Virus record (IMG/VR): IMGVR_UViG_3300031994_000017
Span: 1 to 58,022 of that record
DNA from: a virus
Taxonomy: Duplodnaviria > Heunggongvirae > Uroviricota > Caudoviricetes
Strand: one strand, 5' to 3'
Length of the DNA: 58,022 nt
Shown one piece after another: positions 1 through 58,022 of the stretch. Made by a program: the position numbers and the translations under genes. How positions within the stretch are numbered: the stretch's first letter is position 1; every line of letters starts with the position of its first letter. The notes beneath the pieces are model-generated. The model saw only the letters and a program-made list of their open reading frames with translations. It did no database searches and was not told the DNA's origin.

Positions 1-585
1 TATAAATATAAAGCTAGAAGAATTGTTATTGATGGTAATGGCCTCGGTATTGGCCTGTTGGACTACATGGTAAAACCTCAAGTTAATGTAGAAACTAATG
101 AAACTTTCCCAGATTTTGGTGTTTATGGCGGAACCTAGGATGATGCGGCTATGGAATATAAGAAGTTCCGCACAAGTATATGTGAACAAGATGCCATTTA
201 TGTTGTTAAAGCAACTGCTCCTATAAACACTGAAATGCATACCACCTTACAAGCTCAAATGACTTCTGGTAAAATAAAATTTCTTATTGATGATAGAGTT
301 GCGAAAGCAAAATTAATGAATACTAAAATGGGGCAAAAAATGACTTCAGAATAGAGGGCAGATTACTTAAATCCATTTATCCTAACTTCCATATTAAAAG
401 AGGAGTTAACTAACCTCAAAGAAGAAAATGAAGGAATTAATATTATTTTAAAACAAGCAAATAAAAATATTAAAAAAGATAAAGTATCTGCTTTGGAATA
501 TGGTATTTATTATATAGCTAAAGAGGAAGACGGCAAAAAACGCAAAAAGAAATTTAATGCAAAAGATTGGGCATTTTTTAACTGA
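1..585 (+). CDS. terL: Terminase large subunit, C-terminal nuclease region (5' truncated; 2 in-frame TAG)
   Basis: Frame 1 is open from base 1 to TGA 583-585 if TAG=Gln. Motifs IVIDGNGLGIG and KKDKVSALEYG; lies upstream of portal. Confidence 0.85.
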
Positions 586-597
586 GGAGGGCTTGTA

Positions 598-954
598 ATG
601 TTAGCAAGTAGAGGCGAAATTAAAATACATGAAATTTTAGAAAAAGCTGGTTTAGATTTTAAAGAAGAATATATTATTGAAGGATTAAATAGTCCGAATG
701 GACGCCCTTTGCGCTTTGATTTTGCAATTTTTGATGATGATGGGAATTTAGATTTTTTAATTGAATATCAAGGAAAACAACATTATGAAGCAAGTGCTAA
801 ATATGGCGGAAAAAGAGGGCTATATCAACAATAGTTTAATGATAATAAAAAAAGACGTTTTTGCGCCCTTCACAATATCACTCTTTTGGAAATTCCATAT
901 ACAGAAGAAAATTTAATTTCTTATGATTATATAATGTAGCGTGCAGGCTATTGA
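598..954 (+). CDS. Small Vsr/DUF559-like PD-(D/E)xK endonuclease
   Basis: SD GGAGG. LRFDFAIF...LIEYQGKQHY motif; reads through 2 TAG to TGA 952-954. Confidence 0.7.
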
Positions 955-971
955 GAGGTGGGTGAAAAAAG

Positions 972-2540
972 TTGGACGAAAGACAAAAAGAAATCCATGA
1001 AAAAGGATTTGATATGCGGTTAACTGATTATAATAAAATAAAAGTTGGCCCAAAATATATAGAAGATGCAACTATATTAATAAATAATTTATATACTCCA
1101 AGTAGACGAGCGAGATATAGTAAGGCTGATGTTATAAGAGCTTTGGCGGAAAATAATTTACCTAAGTTAAGAGAGATTTCTCGTTTTTTCTATAATACCA
1201 GTGGTATATATAGAAATATTTGCCATTATTATGCTTTTATGTATAGATATGACTGGTATGTGGCTGCGGAAATTTTAGATAAAGAAACTGATAGTAAAAA
1301 AGTTGAAAAAGATTTTTTTAAATTATTGGGATATTTAGATAATTCTTAGATTAAGCGTATTTGCGGAGAAATGGCATTAAAAACTATCAGAGATGGAGCA
1401 TATTATGCTTATATTGTCCCTTGCGCAGATAAATTAGTGTTACAAGAATTACCTGTTAATTATTGTCGTGTAAGATATAATGTAGGTGTTGACCCAGCAG
1501 TAGAATTTAATTTAAGATTTTTTGATGAAGCATTTCCCACATATGAATATCGTATGAAGGTATTAAAAATGTTCCCTAAGGAGTTTTATAAAGCTTACAT
1601 GCTTTATCTTAAACGAAAATTAAAAAATGACCCTTGGGACGTCGATGATGGTTGGTATTTATTACAGCCGGGTAGTTGTGTGCGGTTCAGTCTCTTTAAC
1701 AATCCGGAAATCCCTATGTTCGCCAATGCGATTCCATTAATTATGGACTTAGACGCAGCATAGGATCTTGATCGCCAAAAGCAAATGCAAAAATTATTAA
1801 AAATTTTAATTCAAAAATTACCTTTGGATAAAAATGATGATTTGGTATTTGATGTAGATGAAGCAAGAGATATTCATAAAAATGCTGTTGAAATGCTGAA
1901 GAATGCTATTGGAGTTGATGTTCTTACCACTTTCGCGGATGTTAAAGTAGAAGATATGTCTGATTCTAATACTACTACGACTTAGGATGATTTAAAGAAA
2001 ATTGAACGCACTGTGTTTAATGCTTTTGGTACTTCTTAGAATATTTTTAATGCCGAAGGAAATTTAGCAGTAACTAATTCAATTCTTCAAGATGAATCAT
2101 TGATGCGGAATTTGTTATTACAATTTAATGCGTTTTTTAGTAGAGTCACATCAGCATTTACAGCCAACAGAAAAAAATATAATTTTAAATTATATATGTT
2201 AGAAACTACTCAGTATAATTACAAAGAATTATCAAAGATGTATAAAGAATAGGCTACTACAGGTAACTCAAAAATGTTGCCGCAGATTGCTTTAGGACAG
2301 TCTTAGAGCTTTATTCTTCATAGTGCTTATTTTGAAAATGAAATTCTTGATTTGCCGTCTTTGATGATACCTCCTATTATGTCTTCTACATTAAGTGGTT
2401 CAGAAATTTTGGCCAGAAAAGACCAAAGAAATAGCGAGAAAAATCAAAATAATACAGAAGAAAAAACTCAAGGTCGGCCAGAAAAAGCTGATAATGAGAA
2501 AAGTGATAAAACAATCGCTAACCGAGAGTCAATGGGATAA
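972..2540 (+). CDS. Portal protein (~522 aa)
   Basis: ORF pieces 972, 1371, 1785 and 2352 share one frame, separated only by TAG; ends TAA. Position between terL and protease; size fits. Confidence 0.8.
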
Positions 2541-2554
2541 GGAGGTAAATAAGA

Positions 2555-3835
2555 ATGCCAAGACATGAAAGTGTTCCTGTTTTATCTTCAGTTGAATTAA
2601 TTGATATTGCCCCTTCTGAACATAGTCCTCTTGTAAGTAAATGTGTTATAAAAGTTTGTTATGTAAGTGATAAGCCAAATCGCAATGGAAGTATTATTAC
2701 TAAAAATACCGCGAAAAAAATGGCCCCAACTTTAAGGGGAGCTATTATTGCTGGATATTATAACAAAGAAAAGTAGGACTTTGAAGAACATAATCGTTCT
2801 TTTGAAATATCTAATGGTGAAGTTAAAGTGACTGATTTAACTCGTCCTTATGGCTTCGTTGATATTAACGCAGATGTGTGGTTTTAGAAATTCATTGATG
2901 ATGACAAAGAAGAACGTGAATATATGTGTACTAATGGCTGGCTTTGGACAGAAACCTATCAAGAATGTCAGCGAGTAATTGATGAAGGAAATAATCAATC
3001 TATGGAGTTGGCTAGAAATTTTTTAGATGGTTCTTGGACCAAAGATAATAAAGGGTAGCCAGAATTTTTCATAATAAATGAGGCAGTAATAGAAAAACTT
3101 ACTATTTTAGGTGAAGATGTTGAACCCTGTTTTGAAGGCTCCAGTATTACTGCGGATTTTTCTCTTGGAGCCGATTTTAAAACGCAAGTTTTCAGTTTGT
3201 TAACTGAAATAAAAGAATTATTAGCAGAAGGAGGAGAAAAATCTATGGAGCAAAATACTCCCGATACTGTTGTTGAAGAAAAGATTGAAGAAGAAATTGT
3301 TGAAAATACTGAAGATTTTAAAAAGAAAGAAGAAGAAAAACAACAGGAAGAAAAAGAAACTCCTAAAGCAGAGGAAGATGAAGAATCTTCTGAGAAATAG
3401 GATGAAGAGGATGAAGATGAAAAGAAGAAGAAAACAGATCATGCTCTTCAAGAACAATATAATGCTTTAAATGAGCGTTATGCTGCTTTAGAACAAGAAA
3501 AATTAGCTCTTGAAAATGAACTTTAGGAATTGCGTGAATTTAAAAAGCAAGCAGAACGAGTTCAAAAACAAGAGATGATTGATAGCTTCTTTATGTTATC
3601 CGATGAGGATAAGGCTGATGTTGTAAAAAACATTGATAATTATTCTTTGGATGATATTGAAGCAAAATTATCTGTTATTTGCGTTCGTAATAAGGTTAAT
3701 TTCAATCTTATAGAAGAAAAAGACGAGGAAGAAACTCCTACAGTCTATAATTTAGAGAATGAAAATAACATTGAGCCAGAAATCCCTGATTGGATTAAGG
3801 CTCTAAACGCAGTTGTAGCTGAAAATAATTTTTAA
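2555..3835 (+). CDS. Prohead protease/scaffold (~426 aa)
   Basis: Pieces 2555, 3197 and 3530 share a frame through TAG. Protease-like N-half (TRPYGFVD, GNNQSMEL) plus acidic coiled-coil C-half. Confidence 0.7.
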
Positions 3836-3853
3836 TAAGGAGGATAACATAAA

Positions 3854-4528
3854 ATGGCTAAAACACGTTTAAGTGAAAAAGCTCTTTATGTAGAGCGTGG
3901 TTATGGTCAGGTTGAGCCTAATCATTTGAGTGCTCAACGCAATGGCCAGATTTATGCATAGCTTCCAGCCAAAGCCGATATTGATGTTCTTGAAAATGGT
4001 CAATTTGTAAAATATGATTATAAAGAAGGCGTCGTTGATTTTGATGGTCCTGGTGAATGGATGCTTGTTTTTAATGAAGTAAAACTTTATAGAGATCATT
4101 TAGATTATAATGATTTTGCTATGAAGAAGAGTGATTATGCTGCTAGAGTTTATAGCCCAGTTGGTAGTTTAAAGGGCATCGGTTAGGCTCGTGATTATAG
4201 TAAAGTAGTTACTCCTGCTGATCCTTATGAGCCCGACAGCACTGAGAATCCATTTACTATTACTCAGTGGAATGTTCCTCAGCTTATGCCTGAAAACACT
4301 ACTATGGTTCCTCGTGTTTTTAAGACTAACGTTGGAGATATTTTTACCACAAATACTGTTGCCGCTGAAACATTGGCATTAGGTGACAATTTAGTAGTTG
4401 GTGATGATGGTTATCTTTGCCCCGAAGCTGATGCTGGTCAAAATGCTGGCACAATGAAGTGGCAGGTTGTTAAAGTTTATACTTTACCAGACCGTGAAAA
4501 GGCTGTTAAAGTTATGAGAATCGCTTAA
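3854..4528 (+). CDS. Head decoration/minor capsid protein (~224 aa)
   Basis: ATG 3854 after an SD, in frame with the 4286 piece via TAG; directly upstream of the major capsid. Confidence 0.6.
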
Positions 4529-4548: not shown

Positions 4549-5670
4549 ATGGCTTTAGATTTTGAAAATTTATTTTCTTTAATGAAAACTGTAGCTAAGG
4601 CTGATGCTTCTGCTCCTGTAGCTTATAGTTTCAATGGTAAAGATTATTCTTATGAAGCTTTAAATACCACTTTGCGCCAAGAGCTGAATGAAATCGCCGG
4701 CGATTATCGTTCTTTCCGCAAGAATAGTGCTGATGTTTATAGCTTAATTGAACGTGTTGTTGATGACGTTCTTCCCAAGAAAGTTCAAGAGAACTATCAA
4801 ATGTTTGCTGAGGTTCAATCTGTTCCTCAAGGTGATAAAGTTCTGTTCCGTAGAAAGCTTAGTGCTCGTGCTCGTGCCAAGCAGTTTGTAACTCGCGTTG
4901 GTCTTGCTGGCGTCTATGAAGTTTGGAAGCTTGGCGGAGAAGAGAGCTTTGAGGTTCCTACCAGTGCTATTGGTACTGCTGTTCAGATTCCTCTGGAAGA
5001 GTTCCTGGATGGCCGTGTTGATTGGGCTGAAATGCTTGATATCGTCATGGAGGGTATGGATGAACTGATTTATCATGAAATCGGTGCGGCTCTTCGTGCT
5101 TCTATTGATCAACTTCCTGTTAACAATGTCGTTGTTTCTAACGATTTTGATGAAGTTGAATTTGATCGTTTACTGTATATTGCTGATGCTTATGGTCCTT
5201 CCACAATTTATTGTACGATGGAATTTGCGGCTAAGATGATTCCTCATGACACTTGGCGTTACACCGAGCAAATGAAATCTGAGCTGTGGCAGAATGGTCG
5301 TTTAAGTTCTTATAAAGGCCGTAGTGTTGTTATTATGCCTAATGGTATTGAAGATGAAACCAATAGTCGTAAGACTGTTGATTCTTCTTGGTGCTGGATT
5401 CTTCCTGGTGGTGGAGCTAAGCCTGTTAAGGTAGTCTTTGAGGGCGATACTCTGAGCCGTGAAGAGCAGAATCATGACTGGAGCCGTGATATTCATATCT
5501 ATAAGAAGGTCGGCGTTGCCGCAATGATGACCAATGATATTTGTGTTTATCGTGATACTTCTTTAGGTGATATGAATATTACTAGTTTGAACTATAACGC
5601 TGGTATTGACGCAGTTAATACTGAAGTTTCTGTTGTTGACAATGAGCCCGATGAAGGAGACGGCGATTAA
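4549..5670 (+). CDS. Major capsid protein (373 aa, no TAG)
   Basis: Intact ORF, strong SD, biased codon usage, head-module position, followed by a terminator. Confidence 0.85.
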   Translation: MALDFENLFSLMKTVAKADASAPVAYSFNGKDYSYEALNTTLRQELNEIAGDYRSFRKNSADVYSLIERVVDDVLPKKVQENYQMFAEVQSVPQGDKVLFRRKLSARARAKQFVTRVGLAGVYEVWKLGGEESFEVPTSAIGTAVQIPLEEFLDGRVDWAEMLDIVMEGMDELIYHEIGAALRASIDQLPVNNVVVSNDFDEVEFDRLLYIADAYGPSTIYCTMEFAAKMIPHDTWRYTEQMKSELWQNGRLSSYKGRSVVIMPNGIEDETNSRKTVDSSWCWILPGGGAKPVKVVFEGDTLSREEQNHDWSRDIHIYKKVGVAAMMTNDICVYRDTSLGDMNITSLNYNAGIDAVNTEVSVVDNEPDEGDGD

Positions 5671-9573: not shown

Positions 9574-10809
9574 ATGAAATTTGGTGTTCGTGAATGTTGT
9601 GACGTCGTTCTGCGTGCCAAAGGCACTCAGAAAGTCGGTAATAAGATTTTCTATAAGAATGAACCAGTTATTTATTTCGATACTTTAAAAACCTCCAGTC
9701 TTGAAGGTGCTGCCACTACTGTTTATGCTCAAGGCGGTCGTGGTAATGCTCGTTTAATGTCTTGGGACGGTGAAAGAACTCTTACATGGACTATGGAAGA
9801 TGCTCTTATTTCTCCTATTGGTCTTATGATTTTAACCGGAGCCGGACTTATTGATAGTCCAGCTAAAAATAGTAATAAAGAAGGTATTATTGTTCATACT
9901 ACAGAACAAATTCAATTATCTGATGCTAATTTTGCTTTATTAAATAATAATGCTGGTTATAAAATTCTTTTGTCTGAAAATCCCTATGACCCTAAAGATT
10001 CTAGTAATCATTATACAGCTGATAATATTTATGTCATGAGATTAGATTCTAATGGTGATATTATTTCTGAGCCATTTATTGGTACTGCTACTGCTGATTC
10101 TAAATGGATTGAAATTAAGGCTCGAGATCGTTATGATGACGCTGGTAATAAGTGGGAATATGGTAAAAATTTAGATGAAGTCGGCGGTTTTGCTCGTCAC
10201 ACTAAAGGATTAGCTAAAGATGATGTAGTTCTTGTTGACTATTATCGTGAAGTAAGAGGAATTGGTGCGGCCCAAGAAATTAATATTACTCCTGATAAAT
10301 TCGGTGGTAGTTATTATCTTGAAGCTTCTACTCTTTTCCGTAATGAAGATGGTCTTGATATGCCTGCGGAATTTATTATTCCTAACTGCCGCGTTCAGTC
10401 TAATTTTACCTTTACATTGGCTTCTAATGGTGATCCTTCAAGCTTTACTTTCACCATGGACTGCTTCCCTGACTATACTCGTTGGAACAAAACTGAAAAA
10501 GTCCTTGCTACAATTCAGGTTATTACTGAGGGCACTGGTGCCGGTAATGAGTTAATGCGTCTTGAAACTAACCACCATGGAGTTTATGTCCATGAGAATC
10601 TTGACGGTACTATTACAGATGAGCGTTATGCGGCCTAGGCTGGTTCTAATAAGAGTGAAACTGATTATCCTGCTGAAACTGATGGCGCTATTGGCGGATA
10701 TGCTGCTTATCATACCAGTGATAGTGATGTAGCTACTTTTGCTGGTTTTAATGATGACAAAGAGCCAGCAGATAGTAATGGTTCTGCACTTGGAAAGATT
10801 TCGGGTTAA
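9574..10809 (+). CDS. Major tail tube protein (354 aa to TAG; 411 aa with readthrough)
   Basis: Strong SD, biased codons, IYFDTLKTSSLEG...VYAQGGRGN motif. One TAG (10636-10638), then 56 more codons to TAA. Confidence 0.75.
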
Positions 10810-13110: not shown

Positions 13111-16100
13111 ATGGCACGACAAATATCTGTTGGTATTAATTTTAATGCTAATATAAATCAAGCTAAAGCTTAGATTGATAAATTAAATCAAAGTTTAGAA
13201 AAAATTAAATCTACTGAAATTATTGTTCAAGGTGGAAGTATTTAGTAGGCAGTATAGTCTGCTAATTAGTTATAGTTAGCTTTATCTAAGGCTGTTAATA
13301 CTTCTACTGGTCGTTTGGATTTTAGTGCTTTATAGTCTAATTTAAAAATGATGAACACAGATGTTTTATCTGTAAGTCAGAATTTATTAAGAATGGGGCC
13401 TGATGGTCAAAAAGCTTTTTCGCAGTTAGGTACCGCAATAGCAACAGCAGAATTGCCTGCGAAGCGTTTGAATTCTACTTTAGTTAATTTTGGAGATACT
13501 TTAATAAGAACTATTCGATGGTAGATAGCTTCTTCTATGATTCATGGTTTTATGAGTTCTGTTAAAAATGCAGTTTCTTATATTGAAGATTTAGATAAAT
13601 CTTTAAATGCAATTTAGCGAGTAACTCAAAAAAGTTCTTTTGAAATGGCAGGTTTTGCGAATTAGGCAAGTGAATTAGCGGCTAATTTAAAAGTAGTTAC
13701 TAAAGAATATACCGATGCTTCTTTAATTTTCTTCCAGCAAGGTTTAGATACTAATGAGGTAATTGAAAGAACTGACGCAACTATTAAATTAGCTAAAGTT
13801 ACAGGGTAGAGTGTATCTGATATTGCAAGTAGATTAACGGCAATTTGGAATAATTTTGATGATGGAACCAAGAGTTTGGAATATTATGCTGATGTTATTA
13901 CTGCGCTTGGTGCTGCTACGGCTTCTAGTTCGGATGAAATTTCTTAGGGCTTAGGTAAATTCGCGGCAATAGCAGATACAGTTGGTTTAAGCTATGAAAA
14001 AGCTACTGCGGCTTTAGCAACTGTAGTAGCAGAAACTCGTTAGAGTGCTGATACAGTAGGTACTGCCTTTAGAACCATTTTTGCTCGTTTAGATAGTTTA
14101 AGCTTAGGTGAAACTCTAGAAGATGGCGTAGGACTTACAAAATATACTGAAGCTTTAGCTAAGGTTGGAGTAAGTGTTTTAAACTAGAAAAATGAATTAC
14201 GGGCTATGGATGATATTCTTGATGACTTAGGAGTTCGTTGGCAAACTTTAGGAGATGCTTAGAAAAGTGCTGTAGCATAGACAGTAGCAGGTATAAGGTA
14301 GTATGCTTAGTTTATTGCTTTAATGGATAATTATCAAGATGTTTTAAAAAATCAAGATATCGCTGAGAATGCCGAAGGGACAATTTAGAAATAGTTTGAT
14401 ATTTATGCTGATAGTATTGAAGCATTAAATAATGAAATAAAAAAAGCTAAATAGGATCTTTATGGGGCAATTTTTAATGGTGATGCAGTAAAAGGTTTTA
14501 AATCTGCTATTTTAGATATTTTAAAAGTTGTTAGAGATATTATTGATGGTTTTGGCGGAGTAAAAGGATTAATAGTAACATTAGGAGCTTTATTATTAAC
14601 TAATTATATGCCTAAAATAGAAGCTGGAATAATTCGTATAGGAACAAATTTGAAAGATTCTTTAAATATTACTAATTTTTAGAGACAAAATACAATTCAA
14701 GAATTAATTAATCAAAATTCGAATAATGTAAATTCTGAAGTAGTTAAAGGAATTTCAGAAGAAAAAAGTGGAGCTTCTTTAGAATAGCAATAGGCTTATT
14801 ACACGGATTTAATGCTTAAAAAAAGAGTTGAATTGGAAGCTATTAGTAGTAATTTAACAGATAAATAGCGAGAATCTTTAAATTTATAGATTCAAGAGTT
14901 AGAAGTATTAAAAGAATAGGCTATTGCGGCTAGAGAAAAGTACGAAAGTGAAAAAAAAGAGGCTGAAGACTATGCTCGAAATTACAGAGCTAAAGAAAAA
15001 ATTGTAGATTTTAGAAAAAATAAAGAAAAAAATTAGTTAATTGAAGAACAGTCTAAACTTAATAGTAGTAGAGGTGGTTTAACTACTGCTAATAATAAAG
15101 TTGAACATGAATGGTAGGTAGCCAAAGGGGAAAAAGGTGCTGCTCAAAGAGCTGTTAATTTAGCCCAAAATGAGGCAAACAGAATTAAACAAGAAGTAGG
15201 CAATTAGAACACACCTGAATTAGAAAAAGCAAGAGAAAATTTGACAGAAAAACTAAAAGTTTTAGCAGAAGCTACAGATAGAGAGTTAGAAGCATCTAAA
15301 AAAGTTTTAATAGCTAAACAAAAATTAGAGAATAATGAAAATGAGCGTTAGAAAATAGAAGAAAAAATGAATGAATTAAATGGCACTAATGGCTCAAAGC
15401 GAATAGAAGAAATGGCGAGTGATATTAGTGCTACTGGTATTAAAGATAATAAATTATGGGATAATACTTAGAAATAGCTAAAAGATAAAGAGACAGAAGC
15501 TTTTAAAGTAGATACTACAACTTTAGCAAAAGCTGGAAAATTAACAGGAGAATTACTTAGTAAACAAAAAATATATAATGGTTTAAGTGAAGATTTAAAT
15601 AAAACTTTAAATTTAAGAAATAAATTAGATACAGATAATATTAAAAATACAAAAGAGCAAGAAAATATACAAAAATAGGTAGGAAAAGAGCTGTAGGCAT
15701 AGTCTGAACGTTTAAAATAGATAAGTAAAGAAGAATAGGGAAGATTAAAAGACAAATTAAGTTAGAGTGAGAACGGCAAAAAAGCTTTAAAAACTTTAGA
15801 AGTATAGTCTACAGGTGAACTAGACTTTTCTAAATTAAAAGATTTAGATGAATCATAGCTTAAGGCTGTTTCAGACGCTTTACATCAAATAAGTGATGAT
15901 GCAGGAGATGCGGCAGAAAAAACTAAAGTCTTATCTCAAGCTATAATTGAAGAATTGGCATAGAAATTAGGAATACCTGAAGCAGAATTATAGGCTTTAG
16001 TAGACAAATACCGAGAAGTCGGAGAAGCAGAAGAAGAAGCAAAAAATAAAGCAATAACTTTTGCTGACGGTTTTGCCGGAGGATTAAATATAGTTTCTGA

Positions 16101-19100
16101 TAGTTTTGGAACTTTTATGTCTGGAGCTTAGAGTGCTATAGGAACTTTTACTAGTTTTTCTATGGGGGCAAAAATGCTTTCCACGGGAGTTAGTTAGTTA
16201 ACTGAGGCTTTTGGAGAAAATGGAACAGCTATACAACGAGTTACATCTATTATGATGATTGCTCGTGGAGCTATGTCTACTTTAAACACAGTTTAGTAGG
16301 CAACTGCTTTTATTTCTAAAATTGTGGCTGCGGCTCGGAAAAAAGAAACCGTAGAAGAAGAAATAAATACTGCAGCTACCACTGTCAACTCAGTTGCTAA
16401 AGTGTTTAATGCCGAGGCTGGAAAAGGACTGGCAGGAGTTATTCTAGCAGTTGTTGCTGCGGCAATTATTGTTTCTACAATAGCAATTGTGGCAAATACT
16501 GTAGCAACTAATAAAAATACCAAAGCTAAGCAGGCCAAGGCAGCTCAAGATGAAAAAAATGCTTAGAGCGCAAAAGAAGCAGCTGAAGCAGATAAATAGG
16601 AATTAGAAGAATTAACACAGCTTAATAATGAATATGAAAGAACCTATGCGATTTATAAAAAAAATAAAGAAAATAAAGAGGATTTAATTGATACAATACC
16701 AGATTTAATTGATAAATTAGAGATAGAAAATGGTTATTTATTATTATAGCAAGAAAGATATGAAGAATTAAATGCGGAAATTGAACATTATTTAGCTCTT
16801 AAGGGAGAGCAAGCTAAAACCTCTGCGGAAAAAAATGTTACTAATGCGACTCTTGATTTGGCTTCTACGGCTGCGGCCAAAGAGGGTGGAGCTCAAAAAG
16901 TTGATGTTGTTAATGATGAAGGCAAAGTTGTAGGATCAGCTATAAGGTTCCCAATTGATGATGCTGAAGAATTAGGATATTTATCTCAATATTTAGAAGA
17001 AAATCCTGTTTAGGGTTGGACTGTTGATAGCGCTGGTTTAGTATTCTATAATAAAGAAAAAAATGCTAAAACCGCAGAAAAAATAAGAGAAATTTATGAT
17101 GGATTTTTTAATTGGATAAAAGATGTAGATAGTGAATTTGTTGCTGCTAATAGTGAATTTGCCAATGTGTTTCATGAAGCAGAAGAAAATGGGGAAATAG
17201 AAAAATTAGAAAGTTTAACTGCGGCAGAAGAGTTAGAATAGGATACTGTTTTAATTAATAGTATAAATAAAAGTAATATAGCACAAAGTGATAATTTTAT
17301 TGATTATACAAAAAAAAGAGCTGAATTATTAAAATAGTATATAATTGAATCGGGAAAAACAGAAGAAGAGGCAGAAAGAGCATTAAATCAATATTTAAAA
17401 GAGCAAGATGCCACTAGAGAATTTGAATAGAATTTTGAAATTTCTCGAGCAAAATCAAAAGAAAGTTCAAAATTGGATTTTTCTTCAGGGCAAATTGAAT
17501 ATGAGTCAGGAAAGTTTCAAGATCTTAATACTTTTTTATCAAATAATAACATGGATGAAGATGAATTTTTTACTCTTTATAGTAAAATACGCTTTGTTCC
17601 AGATGAGGGTTCTTTGGGAGAAAGTATTTTAGAAGCTCGTGAAATGGTAGAAAAAGAAGATATATTGGTAAAGATTGTTCCTAGTGCTGAAGGGGCTTAG
17701 AAGGATTTAAAAGAAGATATGTCTTCTGATGAAAGGACTGCCTATACAGAAAAATATAAAGACACTCTTTTTGATGAAAAATATGGATTAAAAGATGCTG
17801 AGGGTAAAGCTTTAACCGCCTCAGATTTTTGGCAAAAAACATATGGAGAACGAATAAAATTAGTTAATTAGTGGGCAGATAGTTTAGATAAAGTTGCTTT
17901 AAACACAAAGCATATTAATGATTTAGAAAACTAGCAAGCAAGTTTAGAAAAAAATAGAGAAAAAATAATTGAAAAACGTGTAAAAGCAAGAAAAAATGAA
18001 GAATAGGAATATTAGGATAATTTAAAATTAATTAGCGAATTAGAAAATAAAAAAAGTGAATAGAGTAAATAGGGTTATTTTTCGTCTTTGGGCGCCTTTG
18101 AAGGAGAAAATTTAAGAAATAGTTTTTCAGAGGTAATAGCTAATGATATGGATGAAACTAAACTTGCTAAAAAATTATCTAATAGAGCTTTAGGGTATCA
18201 AGTAAATATTTCTGATTTTTAGAATAATAAATTTGTATAGAAATTATTAGCTTCGCCAGTTTTTAGTTAGGAATTTTCTGACGAAAATGGAGAAATTAAT
18301 TGGGATTATTTATTAGATTGGTTAACTGATTATCTAGGAACAAATGAGGAAAATAGAGCAAAAAAACTTGGAGATATCAATACCAGATATTATAATGAAT
18401 TATAGGAAAAATTAGAGAAAGCTTAGTTGAGAAAAGACGAATTAGAAGCTGAGTATCGGCAAGAGGCAGAGAGTGATATTCAAAGAGATATTGATAATAT
18501 TTAGACGGAAATTAATTCTTATGAAGATCAATTAGCAGCTTTAGAAACTGAAAAAAGAGATAAATAGATTGCTGATTTAGATTTAGAAGATGGTGAATTT
18601 GATGTTTATTTAGAAGGTTTAAAATCAATTATACCTTATTAGGAAGATGTTTATAAAAATATTGAAGATTATAATAATGCTATTATAGACACAGCGATAG
18701 CAAATAAACGCATGGAAAAAGGCATTAAAGCTCTTGCTTCTAAATGGGATGATTATGATAAAATTATGTCAGATTCTAATGCCTCTTTAGAAGACTTATC
18801 TACAGTGTTGCCCGGAATAAATGATGGACTTTAGGATATATTAAATTTAGATGATATTGATTTTGAATTATTACCTAAAGATTTTGTTTAGAAGAATTGG
18901 AAATTAATTACTGATGCGGTTAATGGTGTAGAAGGCGCTATTGATGAGTTAAGAGATAAAGCCGGCGAAGAAATTTTATTAAATATTGGAGCAAAAGCAA
19001 ATTGGGATGAAGATATTACCAATACTGTTATGGATTTACATAATACCATTGCCCAATATGATGATATGAATTTTGAAGTTGGAGTAAAAGTAGATCCTTA

Positions 19101-22734: not shown

Positions 22735-22736
22735 TT

Positions 22737-22824: not shown

Positions 22825-22850
22825 TAAAGAGAAAAAGGAGGAAAACATCT

Positions 22851-38022: not shown

Positions 38023-38048
38023 TTAAAAACTCCTTTTTTATTTTCTTT

Positions 38049-38077
38049 ATTTTATCATAATTTTTCTACAAAGTCAA
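38049..38077 (-). promoter_or_regulatory. sigmaA-type promoter
   Basis: TTGACT-17-TAAAAT with TG extension. Confidence 0.6.
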
Positions 38078-41122: not shown

Positions 41123-44100
41123 CTTCCATATCTCCTTTGTGTCGTTCTGTTTGGAAAGTTAAATCTCCGTTATCTAAAATTTGATTAATTTTATATAATT
41201 GATGACCCCCAGTTGAAGCATATTTTTTGGCTACAAAATTATCACCGCGTCGCATACCTTGCACCATAATCATATTACCTCTATTGAACCAAGAACGTTC
41301 TACAACTGTTTTTGTTCCATCAGAATTTTTAATTGAAATTTGTTTATCAAACAAAGAAAAATATTCTTTACTAAATTTTACATCTACAACTCCACTAGTT
41401 GTTAAAATTGTCGCTAGACCTTTTTGTTTATCTTTTGCGATACAAGTTCCTGCGATTTTTGTTAATTTAAAGATAGGAATTTCTCTGCCGCCCTTAAAGA
41501 ATGTTCTTTCTACTTCTGGGATTTCAGATAACTTATTAAAATCTTGAATACCATATTTGGTAAAATTGACATTAGCTAATTCATGCTCATGGTAATAAAA
41601 ACACAAAGTTTCCATTTCCCAAGCTGAATAAGTGCCTAACGCATATTTATTCCAATCTGTAATAAAAATCATATTATTAAGAGTGGTTAATACTTCTTTT
41701 TGATGACTTGAAAGCCAATTGCGATAAACGTTCATCCATTTTTGATATACTTTATCCCAAGTCTTTGCATCAAGAATATAAGATGTAGTATCATAATTAT
41801 AAAAATTAATTTCGGTTAGAAAATTAATAGCTCTATCATCAAGTTTATAAGAAGTAGCATTTAGTTTGCATTCACTTTTTAGATAACGATTAAATTCATA
41901 AATTCTATAAGCCATTTTTTCTTCTTCTGTTGTTTTAGGAAGAAGATTATATTTATTAAGAGTCGCCATATTTTGTAGATTTAATTTACTTTTTTTATCG
42001 CAGGTTTCCCAAATAAACCAAATCATATTGTCTTTGCGGCTCATAAAACTATCAAAAGCACCACCTTTAATAAGAGAAATCATAGCAGCTTTATTTGGTT
42101 TAATTCTATAATAAAAATCTTTAATAGAGGTGTATGGGCGGTTTTTAATAATTTGTTCAATCAAATCATCTCCAACCCGCAGCATGCCTTTTAAACCAAA
42201 CCAAATACTATTAGTTTTTTCATCTGGAACAAAACTATAAGTAGAATTATTAATATCAACTAAATTAATATTAACTCCTTCGTCTCTCATTTTTCCGATG
42301 GCTTTTGCGATTTTATCATAATTGGTGTTTTGCTCTTTTTTATCCTCATATTCTTCAAAATCTTCTTCGTTTTCAATTGCACCACTATCTACGATAAGAC
42401 AAGCGCAATTCCAATAAATAAGAGGATATTTATAAGCTATATTCATTTCTTGTAAAGCTACAAGTGAATATGCAAGTGTATGAGACAAGTTAAAACCATA
42501 GCCACGAGAAGTTGCGACTAAGACATTCCAAACATAATTACAAAGATTTTTACTTAGACCCTTTTCTGCGGTTTTTTCAAAATACTCTTTTGTGATTGCT
42601 TCATATTCAACAGGATTTTTCTTAGCAATAGATTTACGCAATCTGTCAGCAAAGTTTAAGTCAAAACCTCCACATTCGGGAATCTGGACTAATTGCATAA
42701 AACATTCTTGACTTTCCGCAATTCCATAAGAGCCTCCAACATATGGTTTAAGAATTTCTATTTCTTTTTTTGTTAGACCATTTTGCCGCATTTCTTCATA
42801 CCAAAGATTTATATTCTTTTTAAAGCGAGCAAATTTGTTCAATGGCTGTTCTGCGCCTTTTTCTTGCGCCATAAGTCTAATAACAGAATTCAAGTGGGCT
42901 AAATCTTCTACACTTTGTGGTTTTGTCAAAGCGATGCCTTGAATACCACTTTGTTTTTCCATTTGGAACAATGATAGAATTTTATGCTCCCAAACCATTT
43001 TCCACATTTTTGGATCATTACGTTCAAGATTATAAATACCTAAAACCTTTTCATAAGTTTCTTTTAAAGTAGGCTCTGGCGTAATTAATCCCGCATTAAC
43101 AAGTAAATCCAAACAAGTATGAAGTTTATCTTCTGCTTCAACACTTAAAGCATCATATTTAATAAGACTACACGCTTCTGCATCATGCAAATCAAAAGCG
43201 GTTATAATCGTTCCATCTGGAGCGCGCATAAGAGCTGTAGAATTAGTAAAAGGTTCATCTACAAAAATTACACCGCCAGCATGAATACCACAGCGGCACA
43301 CCAATCCTTCAATTTTTTGGGCAACTTGCCATAATTCAGGTTGCGCGTCCATTTCCTTAATAAATAAAGGAATGGGTTCAAAACCATTTTCTTTATCTCC
43401 ATAATAACATTGCTTAAGAGTACGAATAATATTTCTATCACTGGGTACTAATGAAGCAATATATTGAGCTTCGTCTACATCAATTCCTAATCCTCTTGCC
43501 GCAGTTAATATAGCAGATTTAGATTTTTCAGTACCAAAAGTAATAACATTAGCTACTCTATCTTCACCATATACTTCTCTAAATTTATTAAGAACTTGCG
43601 CTCTTCTACCGCCCTCTATATCAAAGTCTACGTCAAGGACTGAGACACGCGCAGGATTAAGAAAACGCCAAGGATAAGTACGCACATCTTCCCAAAGTGG
43701 ATTAATTTGAGTAATATCCAAAAGATAGAGAAGAATAAAGCCTACACCAGAACCGCGGCCAGGTCCTACAATACTTCCTGCTTTCCAACAGGTATCAATA
43801 ATATTTTGAAGATTAAGATAATAGGCGGACCAATGTGCTTTATTTACTTCTGAAGATTCCCAAGTCATGCGCAAACACTCATTAATTGCATCATAAATGT
43901 GCTGCTCTTGTAAATTTTTATTCAATTCAAGCTTATTAACTATTGCGCAGGCTAATTTATTATCACCAATATATTTAGAATTATAAAAAATTTTAAGATA
44001 AGGAATTAATTTTTCATATTTAATTCTATATGTTTCATTGTATGAATGAAATTTCCAAAGTAATTCTGGAATTTTTAAAGGTTTTAATAAGCTATAATCT

Positions 44101-44987
44101 TCACACTTTTCTTTTATCTCAATAATATTTTGATAGGCAATTTGAAGTTGCTCTTCAGTTAATTCAGTTAAATAACTTTCTAACTCTTGAGTTCCCATCA
44201 TATAAGTTGTAGCATAGAAAGCATCAACTTCTCTGTCTCCATCTTGCGAGTTAAGATATGCTTTATGAATTGAAGCATCTTCTTTTTTAAGATAATGACT
44301 ATCTGTTGTAATAATATATTTAATATTTAATTCTTCTGATAAACGAAGCAGATTTGTATTAACATATTTTTGTTCTTCGTTATTGGACGGTTGTAATTCT
44401 AAATAAAAATTTCCATCAAAGAGATTGTTCATTGTAATAAGCCAATTTTTAATTTGTTTTATTAGCGTTACATCAAGACTACTTCTGTATCGTAAAAGCT
44501 GAGTGGGAATAAAACCTCCAAGACAGGCCGTACTACCAATCACGTGGCCGGGGTTAGGGCCAATAATATCAATTAAATCTTGATAATATGTAGGTACTCG
44601 TCTCATACGACGAGAAACATAAGAACGCAACCAAGCACGAGTTGAAATTTCTCTTATTTGTTGATGCCCAATAGCATCTTTAGCCAATAGAATAAAATGA
44701 TAATAGTTATCATTTTCTCGGTTATAATTTTCAGCGGTTAAACCATTTCTAACTAAATAAATTTCGTTACCAAGAATTACTTTAAAATTTGGATTATCTT
44801 CTTTTATTTTTTTATAATATTTTTCAACCTTAACCGCATTACTAACGCATTCATGGTCTGTAATGGCTACTACTTCATGGCCTAATTCAATTGCGTAGTC
44901 TATTAAGTCCTTAGGTTTTATAATACAATCTCTTAGTCGGATATTACTATATTCAGTATGGTTATGTAAGCTTCCAGGATATTCCAT
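41115..44987 (-). CDS. dnaE: DNA polymerase III alpha subunit, DnaE-type (1290 aa, no TAG)
   Basis: PHP motifs (LHNHT, TDH), GPGRGSG, LDVDFD, GIHAGG, GFNLSH, C-terminal OB fold. Confidence 0.95.
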   Translation of the reverse strand: MEYPGSLHNHTEYSNIRLRDCIIKPKDLIDYAIELGHEVVAITDHECVSNAVKVEKYYKKIKEDNPNFKVILGNEIYLVRNGLTAENYNRENDNYYHFILLAKDAIGHQQIREISTRAWLRSYVSRRMRRVPTYYQDLIDIIGPNPGHVIGSTACLGGFIPTQLLRYRSSLDVTLIKQIKNWLITMNNLFDGNFYLELQPSNNEEQKYVNTNLLRLSEELNIKYIITTDSHYLKKEDASIHKAYLNSQDGDREVDAFYATTYMMGTQELESYLTELTEEQLQIAYQNIIEIKEKCEDYSLLKPLKIPELLWKFHSYNETYRIKYEKLIPYLKIFYNSKYIGDNKLACAIVNKLELNKNLQEQHIYDAINECLRMTWESSEVNKAHWSAYYLNLQNIIDTCWKAGSIVGPGRGSGVGFILLYLLDITQINPLWEDVRTYPWRFLNPARVSVLDVDFDIEGGRRAQVLNKFREVYGEDRVANVITFGTEKSKSAILTAARGLGIDVDEAQYIASLVPSDRNIIRTLKQCYYGDKENGFEPIPLFIKEMDAQPELWQVAQKIEGLVCRCGIHAGGVIFVDEPFTNSTALMRAPDGTIITAFDLHDAEACSLIKYDALSVEAEDKLHTCLDLLVNAGLITPEPTLKETYEKVLGIYNLERNDPKMWKMVWEHKILSLFQMEKQSGIQGIALTKPQSVEDLAHLNSVIRLMAQEKGAEQPLNKFARFKKNINLWYEEMRQNGLTKKEIEILKPYVGGSYGIAESQECFMQLVQIPECGGFDLNFADRLRKSIAKKNPVEYEAITKEYFEKTAEKGLSKNLCNYVWNVLVATSRGYGFNLSHTLAYSLVALQEMNIAYKYPLIYWNCACLIVDSGAIENEEDFEEYEDKKEQNTNYDKIAKAIGKMRDEGVNINLVDINNSTYSFVPDEKTNSIWFGLKGMLRVGDDLIEQIIKNRPYTSIKDFYYRIKPNKAAMISLIKGGAFDSFMSRKDNMIWFIWETCDKKSKLNLQNMATLNKYNLLPKTTEEEKMAYRIYEFNRYLKSECKLNATSYKLDDRAINFLTEINFYNYDTTSYILDAKTWDKVYQKWMNVYRNWLSSHQKEVLTTLNNMIFITDWNKYALGTYSAWEMETLCFYYHEHELANVNFTKYGIQDFNKLSEIPEVERTFFKGGREIPIFKLTKIAGTCIAKDKQKGLATILTTSGVVDVKFSKEYFSLFDKQISIKNSDGTKTVVERSWFNRGNMIMVQGMRRGDNFVAKKYASTGGHQLYKINQILDNGDLTFQTERHKGDMEDE

Positions 44988-48417: not shown

Positions 48418-48724
48418 CTTCTTTGTCTCCCCAATATTTAAATGCTTGATAAGGATAAGCCACAGTAGAAGGACGAATTATAGTTGAGATTACATTTTCT
48501 GGAATTCCTCTTTGAATATAAGAAATATTACATTTATGGCCGCGAAAGCAATCTCTCGCGGGACAAGCTATCCAGAAATCGCCATTTTCGCACTACATTT
48601 CAAACGAATTATTAATAGATTTAATTTGTGTTGTTTTATAAAGCATTTTTTCATATTGTTGCTAAATTTCTTTTAATTTTTCAAAACCTTCAGTTTTATC
48701 TTTATACCACACTATACCTTTCAT
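48407..48724 (-). CDS. Hypothetical protein (~105 aa, 2 TAG)
   Basis: Not in the ORF track; ATGA-coupled to primase; open to TAA if TAG=Gln. Confidence 0.5.
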
Positions 48725-49830
48725 AAAAAAATCCTTTCTTTAAATAACTGAATAAACTTATCTTTTCCTTCATCTATTGGACTTGCTTTGTATGAAGTTA
48801 TCATGTCTTTGTCAAAAAGAAAAGAAACTTTTATATCTTTTGAATTTCTATCATAAATTTTTAATAAATTGTTTTTTAAATGTTTAAATTCGGTATCACC
48901 AATTTCTTGGAATTGGCGGTCAAACGCTATTGCGATTTCTTCAGCGCCGCATTGTTTTAAAAGATATACTTGATATTGTGATAAATTACTTCCACAACAA
49001 GCTACGCTTATATCATTTTCAAAACCAAAGTATGATTGATATAAAAGAGCAGATTTTTCACTTTCAAAAACAATTGCTGTTTTAGCTTTTCTAATATTAT
49101 CTTTAGAATGATTAATATTATATAAGTTTAATCCAAGAGGATGATTATACATAACTTTATTGATGGTTACAGGTCTGTATTTTCCATATAAATCACAATC
49201 TTGTTGGCACATAAAACGACCGCGCAAACCTATAAATCGTCCTTTAATATCAAAATGAGGTATTGTTATTTGGTCATTTCCTAAATAATATCCAATTCGG
49301 TTATATTCAATAACTTCTTGAGAAATATTTTCTTTTAGCCAAGGAGTTAATTTAATTGAATAATTTAATTTAGTTAAAATATCTTCATCATATTCTTTTA
49401 ATTCAAAAAATTCTAATTTTTTAAAATCTAATTCTTTTAAACGAATATAATCATTTAAACAATTCCAATCCTCTAGACCAAAGTATTCTTCATTTAAAAT
49501 TATTTGAGAAGAAATACCAAACTTTGCGGCTATATATTGAATTGTTTCATTTAAATTTAATTCTTGTTGTTTTTGAATATGAAAAACTTTTCTAGTTAAT
49601 TCAAAAATATCAAAACTAGGTTCCGCGCAACCAGTATAACAATGAAATAAATTACTGTTTGAATACCAATATAATTTTCTACTGCCTATTCCAGGTTGGT
49701 TATGGCAAATAGTGGCGGAGATAATACCAAAATTAGTGTATTCTGGTTCTCCGCCCCATTCAGCCAAGAATTGATAAATTTGCTCTTCTGTAAGTTGCTC
49801 CTTTATCTTATCTTTGTCAAAATTGAACAT
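48721..49830 (-). CDS. DNA primase (369 aa, no TAG)
   Basis: TICHN...CYTGC zinc motif, VFESEKS and IAFDR TOPRIM motifs. Confidence 0.85.
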   Translation of the reverse strand: MFNFDKDKIKEQLTEEQIYQFLAEWGGEPEYTNFGIISATICHNQPGIGSRKLYWYSNSNLFHCYTGCAEPSFDIFELTRKVFHIQKQQELNLNETIQYIAAKFGISSQIILNEEYFGLEDWNCLNDYIRLKELDFKKLEFFELKEYDEDILTKLNYSIKLTPWLKENISQEVIEYNRIGYYLGNDQITIPHFDIKGRFIGLRGRFMCQQDCDLYGKYRPVTINKVMYNHPLGLNLYNINHSKDNIRKAKTAIVFESEKSALLYQSYFGFENDISVACCGSNLSQYQVYLLKQCGAEEIAIAFDRQFQEIGDTEFKHLKNNLLKIYDRNSKDIKVSFLFDKDMITSYKASPIDEGKDKFIQLFKERIFL

Positions 49831-50018
49831 TAAAAGGTCAACACCTTAATGCAAATTCCTTTAATTCCATATTCTTCATTAACGATATTACATAAATAAT
49901 TTTGAATATCACTAGTGCGCTCCTTGCCTTTGCGCATCTTTAAATAGTTCTGAGCCATCTCATTAGTCATCTTATATTCAAAATATCCGGCATTAACATC
50001 ATTATTATTTTTAATCAT
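49830..50018 (-). CDS. Hypothetical protein (62 aa)
   Basis: Intact ORF with SD, coupled to primase. Confidence 0.6.
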   Translation of the reverse strand: MIKNNNDVNAGYFEYKMTNEMAQNYLKMRKGKERTSDIQNYLCNIVNEEYGIKGICIKVLTF

Positions 50019-50032
50019 TTTTTTCTCCTTTA

Positions 50033-51565
50033 TTAAAAAGCGGAACGAGGTTCCACGTCTATTTTTAAATCTTTAATTTCAACTAATTCATAATTATAAG
50101 TAGTAGCAAACATAGGTTCTACCTTACAACGTCCTAAATTTCCCTTACACCAAAGATAAATTCCCTTGTATCTACCTCTACGATTTTTATAAATAGAAAT
50201 CTTTAAAAAAGGTTTTTCAAATACCCCTGCAGAAAGGATTTTATCAAGAGATTGTATATCTTTTTCATTTACCGGCAACATCACAAGGCCGACGTCAATT
50301 TTGTCCGCAATTGATTTCGCTCCTCGCAAAAGATTTTGGTCTGGAGTTTCCGAGTCAACATAAGAGCCATTTAACTGAGTGGCGGACAAAATAAAAATAC
50401 CATATTTGGTACATAAATCTTTAAGTTTAATAGACATCATAAAAAGAATATTATCTTCGCGCAATTTAACTCCACCACTACGACGAGTAATTTCTTCTAA
50501 GATTTTCATTGAAGTATGAATATAGTCTAAACAAATATATCTAATTTCTTTATCACGAATGTTTTTAACAATAGAATTTTCTATATCCTGTAAAGAAAAA
50601 TCTGGAATTGTTTCAATATATAGTGGGCTATTTTCAAGGATTTCAATTGCTTCATAAACTCTCTTTTCTTCATCGCCCTCATAGCGACCATTAAGAATAT
50701 GATCTTCGTCTACGTCCGCGAGAAAAGCTAATATCATAGTTTGAACTTCATCAAGAGTTTGTTCTGTTGTAATGAATAAAGTGGGTTCTTTTACTCCATT
50801 TTTAATCCAAGAGCCAAATTGTTCATTATATATCTTATCGCAAGCAAAGTTACAAGCATCCGCTATCATTGTTCTTGATTTTCCGGTTCCAGTAGGGGCT
50901 GACCGCAAATATAACTTACCTAATCTTGCGCCACGAGTAATAGTATTAATCATTGAACCATAGAGTGGTATACCTACTTCTGGACTTTCTTTTAATCCTT
51001 CAATTAAATCTCTAATATTTTTTGATGCTTGTATAGACTCATTTTCAAAATTATCAACATATTTTGCTTTTATTTCGGTAATTTTATTATCTATTTGTTC
51101 AGCGATTTGCTCTAAAGAAGAATTATCTAATCTGTCCTCTTGGAGCTGGCGCTTTTTTACATCCAAGATATTATCTGGGTCATAAATATCTGTTACATCT
51201 ATTCCAAAAGTATCATATGCGCGCAACAAAGACATTTTTTTCATGCGGTGATAATAATAATCAAACGATGAAGGAGAAGCATTTTCAGAAATTTGAATTA
51301 ACCATTCTTCACCTTTTTGCTTATCAAAAATGGCTTTACTTTTTGGACGAGTTTTTAAGAAATCTAAAATATTTAAAAGATTGATTTGAGAGGCTCCCAA
51401 TTCATGTAAATTATAAATTGTGCCAAAAATAATTTTATGAAAATTATCCGGAAAATCTTCTTCAGTAATATTGTATTTATCTGTAAAATCCAAAAGTTGA
51501 GGATTATTATAAACACAACCTATTACTTGAATAATACTAGTTAAATCAACATATTTAGATGCCAT
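50033..51565 (-). CDS. dnaB: DnaB-like replicative helicase (510 aa, no TAG)
   Basis: SAPTGTGKS, ICLDYIH, SATQLN, LRGAKSIADKID, KNRRG. Confidence 0.9.
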   Translation of the reverse strand: MASKYVDLTSIIQVIGCVYNNPQLLDFTDKYNITEEDFPDNFHKIIFGTIYNLHELGASQINLLNILDFLKTRPKSKAIFDKQKGEEWLIQISENASPSSFDYYYHRMKKMSLLRAYDTFGIDVTDIYDPDNILDVKKRQLQEDRLDNSSLEQIAEQIDNKITEIKAKYVDNFENESIQASKNIRDLIEGLKESPEVGIPLYGSMINTITRGARLGKLYLRSAPTGTGKSRTMIADACNFACDKIYNEQFGSWIKNGVKEPTLFITTEQTLDEVQTMILAFLADVDEDHILNGRYEGDEEKRVYEAIEILENSPLYIETIPDFSLQDIENSIVKNIRDKEIRYICLDYIHTSMKILEEITRRSGGVKLREDNILFMMSIKLKDLCTKYGIFILSATQLNGSYVDSETPDQNLLRGAKSIADKIDVGLVMLPVNEKDIQSLDKILSAGVFEKPFLKISIYKNRRGRYKGIYLWCKGNLGRCKVEPMFATTYNYELVEIKDLKIDVEPRSAF

Positions 51566-55820: not shown

Positions 55821-55824
55821 AAAA

Positions 55825-56925: not shown

Positions 56926-56937
56926 TAAGTAGAAGAA

Positions 56938-56964: not shown

Positions 56965-56986
56965 TATATTTATTTTATTTTATATC

Positions 56987-57259
56987 TTACTCAGCGGCCT
57001 CGGCAGCATCAAGATCCAAATCCATGCCTTCCTTGGTCAAACGAAGCAGCTTAATGGGCTTATGAAGACCATTCTCGGTCTCAACCTCAGCCTCAACACG
57101 AACGCCATAGCCCTTGCGCTGAATGGCGGAAGTAAAGATACCATCAATCTACCGCTTATTTAGACCCAAAGCTTCAGCAACATCTGCGGAAGTAACGTCA
57201 GTTCCATTAATCTTCTTAAGGTATTCAAATACCTTTCTACTATTTTCACTCATAGCCAT
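56987..57259 (-). CDS. Winged-HTH-like DNA-binding protein (90 aa, 1 TAG)
   Basis: Not in the ORF track; TSADVAEALGLNKR[Q]IDG...RLTKEG; biased codons; own promoter. Confidence 0.7.
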
Positions 57260-57308
57260 AATAAATAATCTCCTTTAAAACTTTTTTCTTTTTTTATTTT
57301 GTGTGTAT

Positions 57309-57337
57309 ATTATATAAAAATTTTTTAAAAAAATCAA
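57309..57337 (-). promoter_or_regulatory. sigmaA promoter
   Basis: TTGATT-17-TATAAT. Confidence 0.65.
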
Positions 57338-57528
57338 GTGCTCTGCTTCAACAAGTCTTGAACCATTTCGTCAATATCAACAATGTCTTCTATTGTTTCC
57401 ACATGACTGGATAATTCTACTATTTTATTTTGAGCTTGCTTAATTTCTTTTTTATTTGTTGAATTTTGAACAATGCGTTCATATTTAGCAATCTTTTCTG
57501 CTAACTACTTTTTTTCTTTTCTCTTCAT
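57334..57528 (-). CDS. Small basic hypothetical (64 aa, TAG at codon 8)
   Basis: ATG 57528 after AAGGA; ends TGA. Confidence 0.55.
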
Positions 57529-57557
57529 AAGAAATATTATTCAATCCTTACACATAT

Positions 57558-57586
57558 ATTATATGAAAAATTTTTAAGAAAGTCAA
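57558..57586 (-). promoter_or_regulatory. sigmaA promoter
   Basis: TTGACT-17-TATAAT. Confidence 0.65.
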
Positions 57587-58022
57587 GAAATTTTTATATA
57601 TTTTCTTAAAAATTCTTCTTCTGAGTAAATGGGAATGTTGAGACGTTTTGCGGAAACATTTTTACTTGAAGTGCTATTAATATTATTGTTAATCAGACAA
57701 TCTACTTTTGAGCTAATGGCAGTAACAACTTTGCCGCCATTTTGCTCAATTAAGGATTTTAATTCATCCCTATTTTTGAATTTTTCCAAACGTCCCGTAA
57801 TGACTACTGAAAAACTATCATTATTGTTTGTTTTGGGCAATTCTACAGAAGTAAAAGTTAATTCTGTGAAAACTTCATCGGCCATTGAAAAATCAAAGCC
57901 GCAAATTGCCGCAGTTTTTTCTGGACCAAAACCATTAAACTTAGAAAAATCAAAATTGTCGGCGGCCTTTTCTTTAAGGTCTTCGTATGTTGTAATACCA
58001 TTCTTTACGAGTTCTTTAGCGA
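57583..58022 (-). CDS. ligA: NAD-dependent DNA ligase, C-terminal HhH/BRCT part (truncated)
   Basis: BRCT pattern VVITGRL...RDELKSLIEQNGGKV...SSKNVSAKRLNIPIYSEEEF; frame open to the window edge. Confidence 0.8.
   Translation of the reverse strand, partial: AKELVKNGITTYEDLKEKAADNFDFSKFNGFGPEKTAAICGFDFSMADEVFTELTFTSVELPKTNNNDSFSVVITGRLEKFKNRDELKSLIEQNGGKVVTAISSKVDCLINNNINSTSSKNVSAKRLNIPIYSEEEFLRKYIKIS

Follow-up and report, generated by a model that had tools for sequence, protein, structure and literature searches.

Recoding of TAG from stop to glutamine (Gln) has been described by bioinformatics in gut phages of the crAss-like, Lak and gemstone clades (Borges et al., bioRxiv 10.1101/2021.08.26.457843) and proven by proteomics in crAss-like phages (Peters et al., PMC9523058). 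The wider group around Phage Phass-1 and Enterococcus phage EF1 already includes TAG-recoded members as well (Babkin et al. 2023, PMC10607447). Here we analyzed bases 1-58,022 (the window) of IMGVR_UViG_3300031994_000017, a single-contig IMG/VR record of 150,408 bases from a Caudoviricetes phage. We are highly confident that this phage uses genetic code 15, in which UAG specifies Gln in the phage's own genes and UAA and UGA are the sole terminators. TAG-to-Gln recoding as such is already established, as the initial annotation of the window had acknowledged; what is new here is a relative of a published phage group.

The closest published genome is that of Phass-1 (OQ749652), whose capsid protein is the second-best match in the phage collection, at 46% identity. 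Like Phass-1 (~136 kb), the present phage has a TAG-recoded genome, a large tRNA array and a tRNA-Sup(CUA), and no synthetase of its own. Unlike Phass-1, which has three suppressor tRNAs, it has one, and this tRNA lacks the long variable arm found in the 91-nt Phass-1 suppressor tRNA at 31443-31533 (loop CTGA). Because the capsid is only 46% identical, far below the genus-defining 83-86% nucleotide identity, the phage is not a Phassvirus; its kinship with Phass-1 is confined to the wider group. Enterococcus phages EF1 and VRE9 gave the best matches for the capsid and structural module (40%), which is syntenic with that of EF1, and SPbeta-like Bacillus phages gave those for DNA polymerase III alpha (38%). 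Both sets of phages have similar genome sizes; in contrast to the present phage, they use the standard code, with no role for a suppressor tRNA.

The resemblance to the code-15 gut phages lies in the concentration of TAG in structural and lysis genes, a phage-encoded tRNA(CUA), low GC content (34% here), variably recoded replication genes and the presence of other codes within one clade. The genome sizes of 125-200 kb and codes 11, 15 and 4 among the relatives are consistent, in a description-level comparison, with the Agate clade of Borges et al. No RF2 gene was found in this genome, unlike in some Lak and Agate phages. In a further difference from the code-15 gut phages, the host of the lineage is probably a member of the Bacillota rather than of the Bacteroidota; NrdD-bearing contigs of metagenome-assembled genomes (MAGs) are of mixed taxonomy, and some of them are probably mis-binned phage sequence. 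The record adds a complete, heavily recoded genome to the Phass-1/EF1-like large phages, a group in which the hosts of the closest cultured relatives are Bacillota.

TAG as a sense codon

The unique genome is 150,281 bp long after removal of a 127-base terminal overlap, with a CheckV completeness of 100%. GC skew and gene orientation divide the window into two parts, 1-35,320 on the plus strand and 35,364-58,022 on the minus strand. Under translation table 11, the window holds 40 open reading frames (ORFs) of at least 100 aa with large gaps between them. The fraction of the window covered by such ORFs is 0.389 under this table and 0.957 once TAG is read as sense; for the late module (1-35,320) the two values are 0.182 and 0.978. 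The corresponding control with TGA as sense reached 0.409 and 0.200, almost no gain, and that with TAA inflated the cover through spurious frames, with far fewer long frames than with TAG. The comparison of codes 11 and 15 that the initial annotation had proposed therefore gave a large and TAG-specific increase in coding density (0.18 to 0.98 in the late module), and its observation that fragments join through TAG only and close at TAA or TGA was borne out by the long, abutting frames that appear once TAG is sense.

Gene content was taken from a greedy, non-overlapping set of 198 genes genome-wide, 54 of them in the window and 47 of these at least 100 aa long. In-frame TAG occurs in 41 of the 54 window genes, 314 times in total. 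The estimate of about ten genes invisible in code 11 is close if taken strictly, 12 genes being left without an uninterrupted piece of at least 100 aa, but it understates the extent of interruption. A standard-code annotation breaks 37 of the 47 larger genes and thereby loses or splits portal, terminase, tape measure, lysins and NrdD; translation table 15 is the one required for this record. Genome-wide, the 198 genes contain 477 in-frame TAG, 925 CAA and 312 CAG codons and end in 157 TAA and 41 TGA stops. Within genes TAG is evenly distributed, and no excess is seen toward the 3' end.

Profile matches run through the TAG codons. Pfam matches were full length for NRDD (2-562/562), RuvC (1-144/148), CHAP (2-81/81) and PhageMin_Tail (2-201/201), and Pfam or PHROG models also span TAGs in RecJ, portal, holin and terminase. 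All four motifs quoted in the initial annotation were located at in-frame TAG codons, in RuvC (36419), CHAP (28947), NrdD (38869) and the tape measure (22438), and its hand count for the first 200 tape-measure codons was exact (10 TAG versus 6 CAA plus 2 CAG).

Assignment of TAG to glutamine

To identify the amino acid, we aligned codons with those of related phages. A portal-based scan of IMG/VR returned 37 related loci with portal identities of 48-77% and genomes of 125-200 kb; related-locus searches with the distal tail protein and the tape-measure C-terminus returned no relatives. Over the full set of window genes, the codons aligned to window TAG were CAA (25%), TAG (14%), CAG (7%), GAA (7%) and AAA (6%), and those aligned to window CAA were CAA (27%), CAG (9%), TAG (9%), GAA (8%) and AAA (7.5%). 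The substitution profile of TAG is that of window CAA and unlike those of TAT, TGG, TTA, GAA and AAA. We then scored TAG columns by the empirical substitution profile of each amino acid, separately for the standard-code subset, defined as relatives without in-frame stops. In these relatives the aligned residues were Gln in 114 of 321 cases, Lys in 40 and Glu in 30, and Gln was the best fit by 179 log-likelihood units; in recoded relatives the lead was ~717. The Codetta check suggested earlier, run here as a Codetta-like DNA test, thus placed Gln first by a wide margin, also in standard-code relatives alone. Against the cultured standard-code Enterococcus phage EF1, at 22-40% identity, Gln was again the top residue at TAG columns (18/112), compared with 28/165 at true Gln codons and a background of 4.7%.

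Individual sites agree in most cases. In a set of 30 genome or MAG loci without in-frame stops, NrdD columns 231 and 655 are CAA or CAG in 24/29 and 27/32, and the TAG at residue 8 of the RuvC-like resolvase is CAG, CAG and CAA in relatives. The initial claim that Gln fits the family motif therefore held for RuvC and for NrdD IES*LTGYS (27/32 loci). At the tape-measure motif LH*KELVLN, four relatives carry Glu (GAA, GAA, GAG) or TAG, making it a Glu/Gln position. In the protein database, most NrdD, RecJ and PhoH columns that correspond to TAG are occupied by Gln in homologues, with 120/120 Gln at some sites. No usable match came from PDB sequence searches with the CHAP and RuvC segments. Of the two outcomes named at the outset as telling against recoding, TAG aligning to non-Gln residues or true termini in homologues and the lack of a coding-density gain, neither was found. 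On the evidence of these codon alignments, TAG acts as a sense codon equivalent to CAA and CAG, placed where relatives have Gln.

A single suppressor tRNA

The window is devoid of tRNA genes, in keeping with the earlier statement that it holds no suppressor tRNA. The rest of the genome encodes 32 tRNAs, most of them by far in a minus-strand array at 103.6-115.8 kb, and exactly one of the 32 is a tRNA(CUA):

Genome 104,164-104,240 (-): tRNA(CUA), within the tRNA array and outside the window, Rfam tRNA score 57 bits

No second CUA anticodon stem-loop was found in the genome by a structural pattern search; the phage carries one cognate tRNA(CUA). In this tRNA, U1 lies opposite U72 (unpaired), the next two pairs are G2-C71 and G3-C70, G10 and G73 are present, and the CCA is encoded. 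Its identity with the Escherichia coli glnV tRNA-Gln is 68%; the acceptor stem is shared, with U1, G2-C71, G3-C70, G73 and G10 in common. Positions of this type (U1/72, G2-C71, G3-C70, G73 and G10) are identity elements for GlnRS in the E. coli system. It is also 79% identical to one Phass-1 suppressor tRNA, in which U1 faces C72 and position 1:72 is likewise unpaired; the Phass-1 suppressor tRNAs were assigned to Gln by their authors (PMC10607447). BLAST with the suppressor tRNA gave no match in E. coli genomes or in five relatives.

The genome was also searched for genes that could act with this tRNA. No RF-1/PCRF domain, GlnRS/GluRS catalytic domain or PylS is encoded in the phage genome, so that neither of the two decoding functions that the initial annotation had proposed to look for beyond the window, GlnRS and release factors, was found; the genome likewise yielded no RF2 gene or inhibitor of release factor 1 (RF1). 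In the known ribozyme context of suppressor tRNAs (PMC10879173) the situation differs, as Rfam detected no HDV-like or theta ribozyme beside the present tRNA and its CCA is encoded.

Several features of the region are recorded as observations. A sigma-70-type site with an extended -10 element lies ~135 nt upstream of tRNA(CUA), although such matches are common in AT-rich DNA here. Immediately 5' of the suppressor tRNA, at ~104243-104352 (-), is a weak match to the Y RNA-like YrlA family that falls short of the gathering score (28.5 bits, E 0.005) and itself sits behind the extended -10 promoter-like site. The array also holds a tRNA-like gene with an 8-nt anticodon loop (ttgt) at 112292-112367 (-) and a 95-nt tRNA-Ile(UAU) with a long insertion at 112399-112493 (-). 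Further along, at 135358-135507 (-), is a TAG-free ORF of 49 aa resembling ArfA (core AKKGKGSFKRHEKH), whose match to Pfam ArfA (PF03889) at 24.3 bits (E 4e-6) just missed the cut-off of 25.5. ArfA recruits RF2 to stalled ribosomes, so this peptide gene could have an accessory role in a phage that suppresses TAG.

Distribution of TAG among gene classes

The share of TAG among Gln-type codons, TAG/(TAG+CAA+CAG), varies widely between genes. The features of the window that bear on this are as follows.

1-35320 (+): late module (packaging, head, tail, lysis), 28 genes, 25 with TAG; 268 TAG versus 301 CAA+CAG (47%)
1-585 (+): 3' part of the large terminase; the gene wraps the record ends (149088-150281 joined to 1-585) and encodes 592 aa with 5 TAG
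598-954 (+): HNH/homing-endonuclease-like gene (phrog_9084) between terminase and portal, 2 TAG
972-2540 (+): portal, 522 aa, 6 TAG; phrog_2739, E 4e-74, full length across the TAGs
3854-4528 (+): head-module gene adjoining the capsid gene, putatively a scaffold; TAG-poor (2/10)
4549-5670 (+): major capsid protein of HK97 fold, 373 aa, no TAG, recognized by predicted-structure search
9574-10809 (+): virion structural protein, encoded ahead of the tape measure gene, 1 TAG
13111-22734 (+): tape measure, one frame of 3207 aa, 108 TAG versus 85 CAA+CAG; PhageMin_Tail E 6e-27
28572-30950 (+): CHAP-domain (Pfam) lysin-like protein, 792 aa, 19 TAG
31818-32207 (+): holin, 129 aa, Gln-type codons 3/3 TAG; phrog_13712 holin, E 1.9e-33
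35951-36442 (-): RuvC-like resolvase, 2 TAG
38542-40833 (-): NrdD anaerobic ribonucleotide reductase, 763 aa, 5 TAG, two of them at CAA/CAG columns of standard-code genomes
41115-44987 (-): DNA polymerase III alpha, 1290 aa, TAG 0/45 Gln-type codons
46666-48417 (-): RecJ-like exonuclease (Pfam), 583 aa, 8 TAG
48721-51565 (-): primase-like gene and DnaB helicase (Pfam/PHROG), both TAG-free

The N-terminal part of the large terminase matched phrog_2 (terminase large subunit, E 5.7e-23). The Pfam scan did not recognize this part, the sigma-factor-like gene described below or the small lysis-region genes, some of which were named by PHROGs. The capsid assignment comes from a fold model (pLDDT 67); each of its top 50 PDB matches (best E 5e-8) was an HK97-type capsid or an encapsulin. 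The product of 9574-10809 is presumably the major tail protein, by position only; its fold model (pLDDT 49.6) was too poor for use.

By genome region, the TAG share falls from 47% in the late module (1-35 kb) to 20% at 35-84 kb and 13% at 84-123 kb, which includes the tRNA array. Heterogeneity between window genes is strong (chi-square p = 6e-18). In several late genes TAG is used more often than either CAA or CAG, reaching 108/193 in the tape measure; tail genes and the CHAP protein are also TAG-rich, and an amidase endolysin outside the window has 4 TAG. Within this recoded background, the abundant head and tail genes have 4/39 TAG versus 262/523 (p = 5e-7), and the core replisome has 0/91 versus 34/123 in accessory DNA enzymes (p = 9e-10).

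The same pattern is common to the family, as judged from 12-21 recoded relatives per gene class, which are not independent samples. The TAG share is 2% in the capsid (21 relatives) and 2% and 8% in adjacent head genes, with 4/257 TAG in homologues of gene 3854-4528 (21 recoded relatives), and 9% in the putative major tail gene, compared with 24-56% in the neighboring late genes for low-copy tail, tape-measure and lysis proteins. On the replication side, DNA polymerase III alpha has 3/956 TAG in 20 recoded relatives, the primase-like gene 1/279 and the AAA_24 protein 0/230, versus shares of 17% in RecJ and 22% in the GIY-YIG protein. The Borges et al. preprint, in which the word 'capsid' occurs 0 times, does not discuss the exclusion of TAG from the major capsid gene across the family. 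Besides correct annotation, this family-wide pattern of genes kept free of the recoded codon is the main value of the record.

Just upstream of the terminase and late module, at genome 146891-147925 (+), lies a TAG-free sigma-factor-like gene (phrog_5767, E 2e-45); in relatives, TAG makes up 29% of its Gln-type codons.

Code diversity among relatives

Three complete or near-complete relatives were analyzed in full. G010 (IMGVR_UViG_3300028591_000005; 146 kb, complete) is a standard-code genome without a suppressor tRNA. G006 (178 kb) is TAG-recoded and has a tRNA-CUA. G012 (IMGVR_UViG_3300028048_000052; 175 kb) reads TGA as Trp; no tRNA-UCA was detected by ARAGORN. In G012, with a portal identity of 54%, in-frame TGA takes the place of TAG, 10 of 14 TGA codons align to window TGG, and taking TGA as sense lifts the ORF cover from 0.68 to 0.84. 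Three codes therefore occur within one phage family, and this mixed-code group is a good setting in which to study phage code change and why some genes stay free of the recoded codon. A second related locus (L107) likewise has in-frame TGA.

Proposed mechanism and alternative explanations

With UAG read as Gln, the suppressor tRNA would be transcribed by host RNA polymerase and most likely charged with Gln by a host enzyme, given that no synthetase is encoded by the phage itself, and the single tRNA(CUA) would then read UAG. Genes needed early (polymerase, primase and helicase) are TAG-free and would require no suppression before the suppressor builds up, and the most abundant proteins, the major capsid and its neighbors, are likewise TAG-free or TAG-poor. 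The TAG-rich genes for low-copy virion, tail and lysis proteins would be completed only after the tRNA accumulates, delaying tail and lysis functions; the switch would be timed accordingly, presumably in competition with host RF1. This delayed-late-gene suppressor model is that of Borges et al. (bioRxiv 10.1101/2021.08.26.457843).

The scarcity of TAG in the virion proteins of highest copy number suggests a decoding that stays costly or leaky. We tentatively consider, at somewhat less than even chances, that TAG serves as a graded throttle beyond an on/off late switch, with selection keeping it almost wholly out of the highest-copy virion proteins and the core replisome. If so, suppressor decoding would be costly or leaky against host RF1, TAG density would help to set the timing and amount of each protein, and the ArfA-like peptide gene could belong to the same toolkit.

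Several points weigh against Gln reassignment. The amino acid at UAG is deduced from alignments, and the Gln counts from protein databases are partly circular because related phage proteins there, whose encoding contigs we inspected, were themselves translated 'with_TAG=Q'; the DNA-level tests were therefore relied on as the independent ones. Two other NrdD TAG columns are Thr in bacteria, although they are CAA or CAG in the nearest phage relatives, and homologues have other residues at some TAG columns of RecJ (Glu, Thr, Pro and Ala) and PhoH (Arg). Such residues are expected at variable sites, though their number is above zero. An NrdG-like gene at 38012-38545 (-) has a lone TAG 17 codons before the end of its frame, where homologues stop within ~10 residues, and this TAG could equally be a true stop or sense. 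A Bacilli host without GlnRS would mean a charging route other than that of the E. coli model, and the relatedness of the genomes behind the gene-class shares limits the weight of those shares.

Among the alternatives, the likeliest, though still improbable, is that TAG is only partly reassigned, acting as a stop early or in a few genes and being leakily read through late, so that many products are truncated. In its favor, the most abundant virion proteins and the core replisome make little or no use of TAG, both in this phage and in its relatives, as slow or leaky decoding would lead one to expect; the failure to find an RF2 gene or RF1 inhibitor and the possible stop in the NrdG-like gene would fit as well. 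The 108 TAG codons of the essential 3207-aa tape measure would, however, leave almost no full-length product unless suppression at each site were very efficient, and TAG shows no 3'-end excess; partial reassignment moreover overlaps with recoding to Gln and does not replace it. A sense TAG that specifies something other than Gln (Glu, Lys, Leu, Ala or pyrrolysine) is very unlikely. Several TAG columns do align to Glu, Lys, Thr or Arg, the best BLAST match of the tRNA in candidate-host MAGs is a tRNA-Met (73% identity), and ARAGORN labels the tRNA 'Pyl', a label given by the anticodon alone. These points stand against the lead of Gln by 179 and ~717 log-likelihood units in standard-code and recoded relatives, the CAA-like substitution profile and the Gln-type acceptor stem; pyrrolysine decoding in particular is at odds with the absence of PylS from the genome search and with TAG columns that correspond to Gln.

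An origin of the interrupted frames in a defective genome, as pseudogenes or through errors of assembly or sequencing, is less likely still, with a chance close to nil; nothing beyond the bare presence of stops speaks for it. The interruptions are only ever TAG, never TAA or TGA, the resulting cover is 98%, the genome is complete with a terminal overlap, and dozens of independent related contigs have the same TAG-only pattern, with TAG swapping with CAA and CAG. The density gain and the DNA-level alignments refute this explanation.

Additional observations

The EF1 homologue of the tape measure (15737-23764) is labeled 'cobalt-zinc-cadmium resistance protein CzcA' in GenBank, almost certainly a misannotation. 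Elsewhere in the present genome, several TAG-free genes at 72217-74103 and 87912-92576 (-) use CAG more than CAA (16 versus 3 in one example), in contrast to the remaining genome, and may be recent acquisitions.

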